Position numbers and translations under genes: made by a program
Origin: Planctomycetia bacterium
GTDB lineage: Bacteria; Planctomycetota; Planctomycetia; Gemmatales; Gemmataceae
Direction: 5' to 3'
Assembly (NCBI GenBank): GCA_022616395.1
Contig: JAKEEV010001071.1
Span: 1-32,286 of the forward strand
Length of the DNA stretch: 32,286 nucleotides
Part shown: one piece after another, positions 27,244 through 29,958 of the stretch
Position numbering within the stretch: the first letter of the stretch is position 1
Layout: each line of letters starts with the position of its first letter
The notes under the pieces: model-generated
The model's database searches: none
What the model was told of the DNA's origin: nothing
The model's input: only the letters and a program-made list of their open reading frames with translations

Positions 27244-29085
27244 TTACACGAAGTTCCCCGATCCGCCCCGGCGGCTGCCGGTGACGACAAATCCCACTGT
27301 GAGTCCGAGGAACGACCCGGCGACGACTCCCATGAGGATAAACGTGTCTCGCAAGCCGGCCCGAGCGCGGGCCTCATCACGATCCAGAGGGCGGATGATC
27401 TCGACTACTCCGCGAACGTCGCCCACTTTCCAGTCGAGCTTCGGACTGTTCACCGTGTCCTTGTTGTGGCAGCCGAGACAGGATTCCCGCAACCGCCGCG
27501 CGACCGCGTAGCGCAGCACCGGCCGACCCTGGTACTCTTCAAATGTGTAAACCGGCTCTTCGGGGTTCTCGCGAAGTCGCGCGAGTGCATCGCGCTCGAA
27601 GTCGTCCGCCGGTCCGCCGTCCTTGCGGAATTTCCACGGGTAATCGCTGTAGAGCCGGACTTGCATCCCGGTTTCGCTCCGCTCGCTGATTGTTTTACCG
27701 AGGTCGATGGTCAGCGTTGCCGGCAGCGGGAGCGAGTCCTTGCGAGTGGCGTAGTCATGTGTGACGAGCACTTTTCCCTTCGGCAGCGCGCGGTCCACTG
27801 CCTCGGAGTAGACATCGTTGAGGCATTCGAGAGTTTCCGCCTGCTGAGCAGCGCCTTCCAGAGCCGTTGAGCGAACAAGTTGTTCATTCAACCGGCTGAG
27901 GTGCCATAGCCCCACCGCCGAGGCGAGCGAGAGGGCAGCCAGAAGCCCGACCGGGACCGGGTTGCGTAGACACCACCTCCACGCGCGTTCGATTCGCCCT
28001 ACTGGGCGTGCTCGAATCGGAAGGTGATCGAGGTATCGGCGCAGATCGTCGGCCAGTTCCCCCGCGGAGGTGTATCTTCGGCCGGGAGTCTTCGCCATTG
28101 CCTTCAGGCAGATCGTTTCGAGGTCGCGGGGCACCTTGTCGTTGAGCTTGCGCGGCGGGCGCGGCTCGTCTTGAAGAACTTGAAGGATGAGCATCCGGCG
28201 ATTGCCTCGAAATGGCCGTTCGCCGGTGAGTAGCTCGTAAAGAATCACTCCGAGGCTGTAAACATCACTGCGAGCATCGACCCGGTGCGATTCGCCGCGA
28301 GCTTGCTCGGGCGACATGTACGCGGGCGTGCCGAGAACCTCGCCTTCGGGGGTCATCGTGGTTGCGTCTTCAGTGTCGCGCTTGGCAAGCCCGAAGTCGG
28401 TAATGTGTGGTCGGCCTTCCGCGTCGAGGATGATGTTCGACGGCTTGATGTCGCGGTGAACAACGCCAAGTTGGTGAGCCGCGGTCAGCGCGTCTGCCAC
28501 TTCGGCAACCAGTCGTGCGGCCGTGCCGGGGTCGAGCGCTCCAGCGCGCAGACGATCCGCCAGAGTCGCGCCGCGAACCAGTTCTTCGACCAAATAACAA
28601 ACTCCGTCCTCCGTTCGGCCGACTTCAAAGAGAGAGACAATTCCAGGATGCTTTAGAAGGGCCGCGCTGCGTGCTTCGCGCAGGAATCGCTCGGTGTCCT
28701 CGGCCGTGGCTAATCGACCAGCGCGCAGGATTTTGATCGCCACTTCGCGGCCCAACTCGGTGTCGAGAGCGCGGAAGACAGTCCCGAACGACCCGCTGCC
28801 GATCTCTTCGAGCAACTCGAACTTCCCCACTCTGCGGGGATGCGGAGCGAGCGCGGACCGGGCCACCGTGAGAAGCGCGCGAGGAACTTCACCGCAAGCG
28901 ACATCCGCGGGCTGTCTCAAGCTGACCACAAGCGGATCGGTGTAGGTGTCGAGTGTCTGAAGAACCGACCCGCACATGGGGCAGCGTTCGACGTGAGCGG
29001 CGACTCGCGCGAACTCGGAAGCCTCCAGGTTGCCGACCGCGAACCGGGTCAACGCCTCCCGGTCGGGACAATCGGTTTCGCTCAT
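27244..29085 (-). CDS. Ser/Thr kinase with N-terminal zf-HC2/ZAS-like finger and extracytoplasmic DUF3365/Tll0287-like heme-c domain between two TM helices
   Basis: CP...HVERCPMC; IGSGSFGTVF, VAIK, HRDIKPSN, DFGLAK, GTPAYMSPEQ; TM; LPLPAT..RLYSDYPW..DDFE..AL..CLGCHN..WKVGDVRGVVEI; second TM. Start MSETDC at 29085 (GAGG SD). Confidence 0.92.
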   Translation of the reverse strand: MSETDCPDREALTRFAVGNLEASEFARVAAHVERCPMCGSVLQTLDTYTDPLVVSLRQPADVACGEVPRALLTVARSALAPHPRRVGKFELLEEIGSGSFGTVFRALDTELGREVAIKILRAGRLATAEDTERFLREARSAALLKHPGIVSLFEVGRTEDGVCYLVEELVRGATLADRLRAGALDPGTAARLVAEVADALTAAHQLGVVHRDIKPSNIILDAEGRPHITDFGLAKRDTEDATTMTPEGEVLGTPAYMSPEQARGESHRVDARSDVYSLGVILYELLTGERPFRGNRRMLILQVLQDEPRPPRKLNDKVPRDLETICLKAMAKTPGRRYTSAGELADDLRRYLDHLPIRARPVGRIERAWRWCLRNPVPVGLLAALSLASAVGLWHLSRLNEQLVRSTALEGAAQQAETLECLNDVYSEAVDRALPKGKVLVTHDYATRKDSLPLPATLTIDLGKTISERSETGMQVRLYSDYPWKFRKDGGPADDFERDALARLRENPEEPVYTFEEYQGRPVLRYAVARRLRESCLGCHNKDTVNSPKLDWKVGDVRGVVEIIRPLDRDEARARAGLRDTFILMGVVAGSFLGLTVGFVVTGSRRGGSGNFV

Positions 29086-29109
29086 GGGTTGTCCTCGGCG
29101 GGTTTGAGA

Positions 29110-29198
29110 AGCGCAGAACGTGGAATGCGGAACAGAAGACAAAACGCTCGCCGTGTATTTGGTTTTCGTTCCGAGTTCCGCGCTCCGAGTTCCGCGCT
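29110..29198. repeat. Imperfect palindrome built from GCGGAAC/GTTCCGC-like heptamers
   Basis: AGCGCAGAACGTGGAATGCGGAAC ... GTTCCGAGTTCCGCGCTCCGAGTTCCGCGCT. Confidence 0.75.
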
Positions 29199-29331
29199 AC
29201 TCATCGGGCGCCATTCTAACGCCAGCGCGTTACACGATCTGCGTTCCGCGAGTTTTCCATCGACAGTCCGTTCCGCGCCGGGCAAACTGAATTGTGTCTT
29301 CAACATCACCCCGCGAAGCTCCTGGTAAGCC

Positions 29332-29958
29332 ATGAGTGAAGCACGGCCGAGCGCGATCGGCGAAGTCGCCTCCTCATCAGGAGGCACGTCCCGCGGCCTG
29401 CTCCAGCGCGCTCGTGAGCATGACCCCGGCGCCTGGGAGCGAATGGTCGCGCTTTACGCGCCGCTGGTTCTGTACTGGTGCCGGCAGTGGGGATTGGGAG
29501 AGGACGACGCGGCGGATGTCTTTCAAGATGTGTTCCAGTCCGTCGCGGCCCATATCGCGGGGTTCCGGCGGGATTCGTCCGGTGGCACGTTCCGCGGTTG
29601 GTTGAGAACAATTACGCGGAACAAGGTGAACGATGTGTTCCGTCGGCGCCTGCGAGAGCCGCCCGGAGTTGGCGGGAGCGAAGCCCAGACCGCGCTGGCT
29701 CAACTACCGGAGCCAGCTTCGCTGGACGAGGACGGTTCGGCTGATGTGGCCGTGTCGGCGCTCATGCGGCGCGCTCTGGAGTTGATTCGATGTGAATTCG
29801 AGACCCGAACCTGGCATGCGTTCTGGCTAACGGTGGTCGAGAGTCGTGCTCCGAAGGATGTCGCGGCTGAGTTGGGAATGTCTGACGGCGCGGTGCGAGT
29901 CGCGAAGTCGCGTGTGCTTCATCGCCTCCGGGTGGAACTCGGGGACTGCGGGAAGTGA
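29332..29958 (+). CDS. ECF RNA polymerase sigma-70 factor, kinase-associated
   Basis: TSRGLL.R..DPGAWERMVALYAPLV, DAADVFQDVF, FRGWLRTITRNK, sigma4 DVAAELGMSDGAVRVAKSRVL. Confidence 0.92.
   Translation: MSEARPSAIGEVASSSGGTSRGLLQRAREHDPGAWERMVALYAPLVLYWCRQWGLGEDDAADVFQDVFQSVAAHIAGFRRDSSGGTFRGWLRTITRNKVNDVFRRRLREPPGVGGSEAQTALAQLPEPASLDEDGSADVAVSALMRRALELIRCEFETRTWHAFWLTVVESRAPKDVAAELGMSDGAVRVAKSRVLHRLRVELGDCGK

Follow-up and report, generated by a model that had tools for sequence, protein, structure and literature searches.

A putative one-protein switch joining a heme-type sensor, a Hanks kinase and a zinc anti-sigma domain beside an ECF sigma factor in a planctomycete

The window analysed here is a stretch of 32,286 nucleotides (nt) from a Planctomycetia bacterium of the Gemmataceae (assembly GCA_022616395.1, contig JAKEEV010001071.1, positions 1 to 32,286). 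It carries a gene for a membrane-bound sensor kinase, a gene for a sigma factor of the extracytoplasmic function (ECF) type that diverges from it and, downstream of the sensor gene, a third gene for a putative exported protein, together with two copies of the motif TGTAAC-N7-CGTT (Table 1). A previous reading of the letters without database searches (the sequence-only reading) had proposed a two-gene relay made of the sensor kinase and the ECF; our results point instead to a three-gene module with a small regulon. The gene downstream (25583-27112) and both copies of the motif had been overlooked.

Table 1. Features of the sensor kinase/ECF locus in the window
Feature	Position	Strand	Details
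Sensor gene	27244..29085	(-)	613 residues, P0001; ATG at 29085, stop at 27244; open reading frame (ORF) calling, Pfam and structure model
Class I zinc anti-sigma-type domain	28849..29070	(-)	residues 6-79; C6, H31, C35, C38; last helix 69-79
Hanks Ser/Thr kinase domain	28066..28821	(-)	residues 89-340; K118, E137, HRD 210-212, DFG 230-232, T245/T253 invariant
Predicted transmembrane helix 1 (TM1)	27898..27960	(-)	residues 376-396; modelled as continuous with the first sensor helix (one helix, 376-436)
sCache_heme (DUF3365/Tll0287-like) domain	27388..27858	(-)	residues 410-566; predicted extracytoplasmic
CxxCH heme-c attachment motif (CLGCH)	27466..27480	(-)	C536, C539, H540
Predicted transmembrane helix 2 (TM2)	27277..27345	(-)	residues 581-603, then a short basic tail
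ECF sigma factor	29332..29958	(+)	208 residues, P0002, ECF62-like; divergent from sensor gene; DAAD at 29506-29517
Third gene	25583..27112	(-)	509 residues; downstream of sensor gene; twin-arginine-type N-terminus; likely regulon target
Motif TGTAAC-N7-CGTT, copy 1	29218..29234	(-)	149 nt before kinase ATG; likely ECF promoter, from sequence
Motif, copy 2	27232..27248	(-)	overlaps kinase stop codon; 136 nt before third gene

Results

Architecture of the sensor protein

The open frame of the sensor gene spans 27244-29142 (-) and reaches upstream to a TTG at 29142. Its product is ordered as an anti-sigma zinc finger, an intact Hanks kinase, TM1, an sCache_heme domain (DUF3365) bearing CxxCH, and TM2. 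That one polypeptide joins a finger motif, a Hanks kinase and a CxxCH motif between two transmembrane helices had been claimed previously and was borne out by ORF calling, a Pfam scan and hydropathy; the coordinates given then for H31/C35/C38 (28972-28995) and for C536-H540 (27466-27480) hold as well. Pkinase matched residues 89-340 (E 1e-50) and all the catalytic motifs (Gly loop, VAIK Lys, helix-C Glu, HRDxKxxN, DFG, SPE and the subdomain XI Arg) are present, confirming that the kinase is intact; the motifs were complete across 94 aligned homologues apart from one D230A. Hydrophobic segments at about residues 376-396 and 581-603 bracket the sensor domain, with basic residues on their cytoplasmic sides, and a full-length model (mean predicted local distance difference test score, pLDDT, 81; low at residues 51-67) showed a helical N-terminal domain, the kinase, and a long helix running from TM1 into the sensor.

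A query with residues 375-613 retrieved 1,208 proteins. Conservation was counted on the 120 listed ones, which are close relatives (at least 59% identity over the searched part); 119 of them were labelled with both Pkinase and PF11845, and the named homologues belonged to Gemmataceae and other Planctomycetia.

The heme-type sensor domain

PF11845 (Tll0287-like) matched residues 410-566 with an E of 6e-17 and 62.8 bits, against a cut-off of 24.1, and CxxCH was kept in 120/120 listed homologues. The model of the sensor (pLDDT 94.8) had Tll0287 as its first fold match, with WalK and GSU0935 (fourth) also among the best, and in this model the CxxCH helix (139-147) is inserted between strands 126-136 and 162-171 of the Cache fold. 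The heme-c-type DUF3365 sensor of the sequence-only reading, including the conservation of CxxCH on which it was to be judged, is therefore upheld. A sequence search of the PDB with the sensor alone gave no match, and the sensor profile reached Tll0287 weakly (E 0.01). The genome encodes cytochrome c maturation-type genes (CcmE, two CcsA/CcmF-type and one ResB), and the attachment motif suggests that the sensor is loaded with heme c. Another PF11845 domain of this genome, the second, is found in an ordinary HAMP-histidine kinase (C117:921-2582(+)).

DUF3365 was redefined in 2026 as sCache_heme, and a signalling-type member is reported to bind nitric oxide (NO) in a slowly reversible manner, NO increasing its phosphorylation by a partner Ser/Thr kinase (bioRxiv 10.64898/2026.02.01.703092; 10.64898/2026.05.25.727664). 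The signalling cluster 2 is defined by charge at family positions 85 and 101 and by the absence of Asn/Ser at position 95; here K488 stands in place of N95 and D494 is near-invariant, both in agreement with that cluster, and position 85 corresponds to Q475 or R477 by numbering. By analogy with the member that binds NO, the ligand of the sensor heme is probably NO.

The ECF sigma factor and its linkage to fingered kinases

P0002 matched Sigma70_r2 of Pfam over the cut-off and Sigma70_r4_2 under it, and its best NCBIfam subfamily was ShbA (E 8e-15, far under the cut-off). The σ4 recognition helix, GAVRVAKSRV, lies at about 29887-29916. The label ECF62-like comes from the gene context, a planctomycete ECF with an adjacent finger-bearing transmembrane kinase, and not from a group hidden Markov model or a tree.

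The sensor was matched in 67 of the 267 genomes of the order. Outside this genome 92 matches were listed; 81 of them, on 80 stretches, made up the order-level set (11 short, duplicate or contig-edge ones were omitted), and its loci were sorted into 34 with finger, kinase and sensor, 18 with a fingerless kinase and sensor, 9 whose kinase is truncated at the 5' end and 20 lacking a kinase. When adjacency was taken as at least 100 bits to P0002 within 600 nt, an ECF of this clade adjoined 26/34 fingered sensor kinases and 0/18 fingerless ones sharing the sensor, one of which (L081) is frameshifted and probably mis-sorted. The linkage of ECF and sensor is thus conserved, as had been supposed, and its divergent layout is not: of the 26 linked ECFs, 14 were divergent, 7 lay upstream in tandem and 5 downstream in tandem, so that orientation was rejected as a conserved feature (12/26 tandem). 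Outside the order, 400 further genomes of the phylum were sampled and 32 of them matched; among the 20 loci taken, the clade ECF lay beside 5/5 fingered kinases (two near-identical) and 0/6 fingerless ones.

This genome has seven ECFs of the clade, all with DAxD and all adjoining finger-type genes, namely five intact finger-kinases, each differing in its C-terminal part, one degenerate finger-kinase on a cut contig, and one finger without a detected kinase. Besides the pair studied here, five finger-kinase/ECF pairs are at C1321, C1035, C396, C720 and C71, with varied C-terminal parts (WD40-like and others, by eye). At C1346:656-2658(-) the clade ECF is followed by a 130-residue finger ORF and an overlapping frame with a transmembrane segment and an FGE-sulfatase-like domain (labelled by eye); this locus without a kinase may be frameshifted or encode a kinase-free anti-sigma. 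The pairing of a finger-kinase with an ECF, whose novelty the sequence-only reading could not confirm, has been described for ECF62 (PMC7826278), and this genome alone has five such kinases.

P0002 has DxxDxxQ[ED] without Ser/Thr inside the motif, its DAAD being residues 59-62. D/E59, D62 and Q65 were each found in 26/26 linked ECFs, with Thr at position 60 in four and at position 61 in one. Since these residues are kept, an EcfP-type phosphate would not be needed, and phosphorylation in the DAED position as in EcfP/PknT, which had been considered for this ECF, was rejected. Ser/Thr occurred at positions 19, 86, 116 and 160 in 26/26; the ECF may be phosphorylated at sites outside the motif.

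Different arrangements of these domains were also observed. In the window, a second ECF at 486-1082(-) (Pfam Sigma70_ECF, DTVD at the DAED position) diverges from a kinase-WD40 gene at 1275-3857(+) without a detected finger, the two forming a kinase-linked ECF pair of another type. A single frame at L102:4830-7214(-), with a weak ECF-like match, a kinase and the heme sensor, may be an ECF-kinase-sensor fusion. Kinase-sCache_heme fusions with neither finger nor cognate ECF are also common in Planctomycetota (L061, L069, L074, L076, L082, L086-L088, L092, L093, L103, L107, L110, L111, L122, L130, L134, L135, L140, L144 and L147).

The zinc finger and its predicted contact with the ECF

The spacing of the finger, C6-x24-H31xxxC35xxC38, fits the class I pattern C/H-x23-26-HxxxCxxC; HxxxCxxC was present in 98/98 close homologues of at least 590 residues and C6 in 96/96 aligned. 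A 24-sequence family profile of the finger matched the solved anti-sigmas DdvA (E 2e-4) and ChrR (E 3e-4), and also RsiW and RslA, and Pfam zf-HC2 matched 15/24 relatives' fingers at E up to 1 (best 3.5e-5). The anti-sigma identity proposed for the finger is therefore supported by motif conservation and profile matches, with zf-HC2 blank for the copy in P0001.

The complex of the finger and its cognate ECF, modelled with ESMFold2, scored 0.72, against 0.35 for the best control, with at least 90% contact agreement between runs and a partner pLDDT of at least 81; the mark for such scores was attained by 116/157 solved pairs and 2/215 mismatched pairs. In the model, helix 1 of the finger lies on σ4 (189-200) and its last helix on σ2 (61-72), and a dual interface with σ4 and σ2 is known for zinc anti-sigmas (PMC7406223). 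As the modelled finger covers both the DNA-reading helix and the core-binding region, the geometry is that of an inhibitor, and the finger domain is predicted to clamp the ECF. The contact suggested earlier is thus predicted by the model, and the view that the finger is the main control gained support from this model and from the DxxDxxQ[ED] kept without Ser/Thr.

The motif TGTAAC-N7-CGTT

The motif was first spotted by eye upstream of the kinase gene and of the third gene; the window holds two copies, against 0.02 expected by chance. It was found in 33/38 fingered loci, a count that takes in those where it was spotted, in 1/23 fingerless and in 0/16 kinase-less loci. In the 38 loci a spacer of 7 gave 48 matches; none of the other spacers between 3 and 21 gave more than one. 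A separate test was carried out on 40 third-gene homologues chosen by score, none of them adjoining the sensor, allowing at most one mismatch within 400 nt: the motif preceded 8/9 homologues from genomes with a fingered sensor and 1/31 from others, the sole miss among the nine being a distant paralogue. By script, 44/51 motif matches were assigned to a co-oriented kinase or third gene and 7 were left unassigned; in the divergent and tandem-upstream loci the motif was directed at the kinase gene and not at the ECF gene. Start codons came as near as 25 and 29 nt from the first base of the motif, and Shine-Dalgarno-like words at 25-27 nt, so close that CGTT fits as a -10 box and TGTAAC at -35 does not.

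The motif was also compared among related ECFs (40 stretches with sister ECFs; the ECF tree was a quick search). GTAAC-N7-CGTT lay within 450 nt of 24/42 ECFs of the heme-sensor clade (helix AVRVAK[SC]RV), GGGAC-N7-CGTT near 13/14 members of a sister clade with the σ4 helix xxxRKA[KR][FLY]RV, and GTCAC-N7-CG[TA]T and GTTAC-N7-CGAT near 3/10 and 2/4 members of two other sister clades. The hexamer changes with the σ4 helix between sister ECF clades while the 7-base spacer is constant. A composite pattern, written after the sister motifs had been seen, gave 58 matches at N7 and 3-15 elsewhere (73 ECFs); a looser pattern in the sister set showed no clear peak (65 at N7, 69 at N20 and 25-49 elsewhere).

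The two boxes stand in the canonical order of ECF promoters, an AAC-type -35 followed by a CGT-type -10, with a spacer of 7 instead of the canonical 15-18 nt or so. They are nearly identical to those of the BldN promoter, CGTAAC-N16-CGTTGA (PMC2375139), and of the ShbA promoter, CGTAAC-N16-CGATGA (PMC12019637), and some sister motifs end in CGAT like the latter, but the spacer here is about nine bases shorter. No description of a short-spacer ECF promoter was found in the papers searched, most subscription papers lying outside that search. The promoters of ECF62 have been reported as not conserved, in a search that considered only the region upstream of the ECF operon and gaps of 15-18 nt (PMC7826278), which an N7 motif before the kinase gene would escape. 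From its distribution, the motif is likely an ECF promoter switching on the sensor gene and the third gene.

Exact motif copies were also seen in this genome ahead of genes whose products are apparently secreted, at distances of 38 and 69 nt (C1085:1268(-) and C179:1893(+)); these are possible targets, at the chance level genome-wide. Downstream of the motifs, both leaders of the window (27113-27230 and 29150-29200) contain inverted and short repeats resembling interspersed repeats.

The third gene

The third gene was present in 22/39 fingered loci, 1/24 fingerless, 2/9 cut and 0/20 kinase-less ones. A twin-arginine RR was found in 61/61 aligned N-termini, and H102, H208, H343, H350, D353, H458 and K461 were kept in at least 64 of 66 diverse homologues (H102 66/66, H208 65, H350 65, H458 64/65, K461 64/66), giving at least four near-invariant His and an HxxK. 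No match was obtained by sequence or profile in Pfam, NCBIfam or PDB. PF14027 (questin oxidase) in particular did not match; because it matched in 0/101 genomes and in no control, this blank says little about the third gene.

The Atlas model of a 75%-identical homologue, P0155, aligned over 314 residues with the questin-oxidase cluster (template modelling score 0.53 for the query and 0.71 for the target); the fold lead comes from this homologue's model, and the family label stood below the naming threshold of the tool. The HxxK spacing presumably matches the His numbering of BTG13, a member of the questin-oxidase family, whose Thr299 we take to stand at the place of the Asp three residues after H350. 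In BTG13 the iron is bound by four His and a carboxylated Lys (PMC12173810, PMC11951088). By its sequence features and the modelled fold, the third gene likely encodes an exported questin-oxidase-like metalloprotein, and is likely a target of the ECF; it differs from questin oxidase in its size (about 510 residues), its twin-arginine-type leader, the Asp after H350 and the lack of a PF14027 match. A 46%-identical paralogue without the exact motif (C1226:2187-3734) and a distant relative of twin-arginine type whose His motifs are similar (C1345:10827-12509) occur in this genome.

Genomic surroundings

At 3991-24492(-), the window holds a long series of carbohydrate and storage genes, all on the same strand (glycogen-debranching type, GH63-like, PPK2, iron alcohol dehydrogenase, phosphorylase, phosphoketolase and lactate dehydrogenase). 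The other neighbours were rejected as members of the module, a DUF1501 gene being found in 3/38 loci (28-43% identity) and a 216-residue ORF in none.

Discussion

Taken together, the results lead us to lean, a little beyond even chances, towards an ECF62-like switch in which one membrane protein holds the ECF through its zinc anti-sigma domain and releases it when a ligand, probably NO, binds at the predicted heme c and activates the fused kinase. At rest, the finger would cover σ4 and σ2 of the ECF at the membrane. Ligand binding might shift the long TM1 helix or re-pair the dimer, upon which the kinase would autophosphorylate, and phosphorylation of the anti-sigma domain or of the ECF would loosen the clamp; T73/S77 in the last helix of the finger, or the conserved T19, T86, S116 or T160 of the ECF, are candidate sites. 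The freed ECF, needing no phosphate at DxxD, would then transcribe from TGTAAC-N7-CGTT both the sensor gene, as a negative feedback, and the gene for the exported questin-oxidase-like metalloprotein. Release of a zinc anti-sigma triggered by a kinase has a precedent in the action of PknB on RshA/RseA (PMC8999054). Of this scheme, the domain order, its conservation, the linkage of the genes and the distribution of the motif are observed, the finger-ECF contact and the folds are predicted, and heme loading, the ligand, the direction of signalling, the phosphorylated site and the use of the promoter are inferred.

More tentatively, and with rather less than even confidence, we propose that ECF62-like sigmas read a compact promoter whose -35 and -10 boxes are 7 bases apart, which would place σ4 near -24, closer by roughly one helical turn than in the σ70-family holoenzymes known, and that this copy is a one-protein receptor for NO or another heme ligand which sequesters and releases the sigma factor and induces an exported iron dioxygenase-like enzyme.

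Several observations weigh against these proposals. The zf-HC2 blank for P0001 is one, and the modelled complex may owe its pass to likeness with solved zinc anti-sigma/ECF complexes. Five of the 34 fingered genes had no ECF within 600 nt and three had an ECF of a different kind, and the related genomes behind the linkage (26/34 against 0/18) and motif counts are not independent samples. The third gene was missing from the stretch examined in 17/39 fingered loci, and its family occurs in 169/267 genomes of the order, far wider than the switch. Genome-wide, eight motif copies compared with 0-8 at other spacers, which is no enrichment, so that the regulon looks small and a large regulon in this genome is not supported; another genome, G078 (96% complete), has the motif without a detected ECF or sensor. 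A 7-nt spacer does not match the known holoenzyme geometry. As for the ligand, NO is borrowed from a Pseudomonas receptor of different architecture, GSU0582/0935 have no assigned function, and H443, conserved in 110/120 homologues, is a possible protein sixth ligand of the heme.

The finger might instead mainly dock the ECF for the kinase, the ECF being active only once phosphorylated outside DxxD, e.g. at the linker GG[S/T] (S116), like EcfK at T106. We regard this as quite unlikely: the Ser/Thr at positions 19, 86, 116 and 160 and a kinase intact in every aligned homologue except one agree with it, and EcfK is reported to require its linker phosphosite (PMC13147305), but the acidic DxxDxxQ[ED] is intact, the finger is modelled in the geometry of an inhibitor, and the clade ECF at C1346 adjoins a finger gene without a detected kinase. 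Liberation of the ECF by proteolysis or by a conformational change, as for RsiW or DdvA, with the kinase signalling in parallel to other targets, appears improbable. Zinc is often structural in membrane-bound zinc anti-sigmas (PMC7406223), the top matches of the finger profile were DdvA, ChrR and RsiW, and no Ser/Thr is invariant in residues 1-89 (the best, S77, in 67/94), all of which would suit it; however, sequence clustering, without a family scan, revealed no recurring protease gene in the 38 loci, and the kinase is strongly conserved and placed between the finger and the membrane.

As to the motif, it could be the operator of a separate dimeric regulator reading the inner palindrome AACG-N6-CGTT, or TGTAAC could serve as a normal -35 box followed, 16 nt further on, by a weak -10 box; we consider this rather unlikely. 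The core shows a partial palindrome (G at +6 in 36/51 and A at +17 in 34/51), a patch weakly rich in A is found 16-18 nt ahead of CGTT, the papers searched gave no precedent for the spacer, the looser pattern lacks a clear N7 signal in the sister set, and the co-variation of motif and clade could reflect shared ancestry. On the other hand, the motif is directional, no recurring regulator gene was seen in the loci by sequence clustering, motif presence tracks the switch across genomes, and the hexamer changes with the σ4 helix; moreover, the start codons and Shine-Dalgarno-like words are too close to accommodate a start site 35 nt further on, and positions 22-27 hold at most 0.35 bit each. Similarly on the unlikely side is a heme that reports redox potential (e.g. 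of quinones or sulfide) instead of binding NO, or a finger that senses thiol oxidation. If H443 occupied the sixth site, redox sensing would be favoured, the likely target resembles hydroquinone-cleaving dioxygenases, and stand-alone sCache_heme members are described as redox-type (bioRxiv 2026.02.01.703092, 2026.05.25.727664). Nevertheless, no conserved Cys is found at the extrapolated position of the sixth ligand of Tll0287, where P455 stands in 82/85 (the alignment starts at Tll0287 residue 80), and the same preprints report that oxidation state alone had a weaker effect than NO on the Pseudomonas receptor.

The preferred switch can be set beside several known systems. The kinases of ECF62 were described with an N-terminal zinc finger by Casas-Pastor et al. 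2021 (PMC7826278, supplement): as here, a planctomycete ECF adjoins a transmembrane Ser/Thr kinase (subgroups s1-s3), but those kinases carry WD40 after one transmembrane helix, instead of sCache_heme between two. In the parts of that source consulted, the finger is not called an anti-sigma and kinase-linked groups are said to be typically without anti-sigmas. EcfP/PknT and EcfK/PknS (ECF43; PMC8999054, PMC8103513, PMC13147305) likewise pair an ECF with a membrane Hanks kinase; they are described as lacking both the acidic motif and an anti-sigma, whereas here DAAD is kept and the kinase bears a finger. The uncharged replacement of DAED with Thr/Ser that defines ECF43 is absent from the 26 linked ECFs. 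ChrR, RsiW, RslA and DdvA (PMC8999054, PMC7406223) share the C...HxxxCxxC motif, profile similarity and the predicted contact with σ4 and σ2, and RshA/SigH with PknB show that kinase control of anti-sigma release is known (PMC8999054), but in P0001 the kinase and the sensor share a chain with the anti-sigma domain.

The Cache_heme-HAMP receptor of Pseudomonas azotoformans resembles the sensor in its CxxCH Cache domain between two transmembrane helices and its coupling to a PknB-like kinase (bioRxiv 10.64898/2026.02.01.703092, 10.64898/2026.05.25.727664). There, receptor and kinase are reported as separate, joined via HAMP after TM2, with no output assigned; here the kinase is fused before TM1, HAMP is missing and the output would be an ECF. 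Among sCache_heme architectures, the preprint text mentions His kinases, chemoreceptors, cyclic-nucleotide enzymes and HAMP-only receptors and does not name kinase fusions or ECFs, which its supplementary datasets S1/S2 could list. No description of an sCache_heme and finger-kinase fusion was found in the papers searched, with the same restriction on subscription papers as above. The modules, the ECF62-type finger-kinase and sCache_heme, are known; their fusion, for which we found no description, is accompanied by a putative target gene and by a possible promoter whose spacer looks unprecedented.

With this locus, the unstudied kinase-linked ECFs of planctomycetes gain a complete circuit open to testing: a sensor whose putative heme c offers a spectroscopic handle, an anti-sigma contact predicted by modelling, a promoter candidate and a likely target. 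It would show by what means kinase-linked ECFs with an intact acidic motif are controlled, a question left unanswered by PMC8999054, and would connect the newly defined sCache_heme NO sensors directly with transcription. If the 7-nt spacer is real, it would break a basic rule of σ70-family promoter geometry and explain the report of non-conserved ECF62 promoters. Finally, the third gene points to an abundant unnamed family of planctomycete enzymes.

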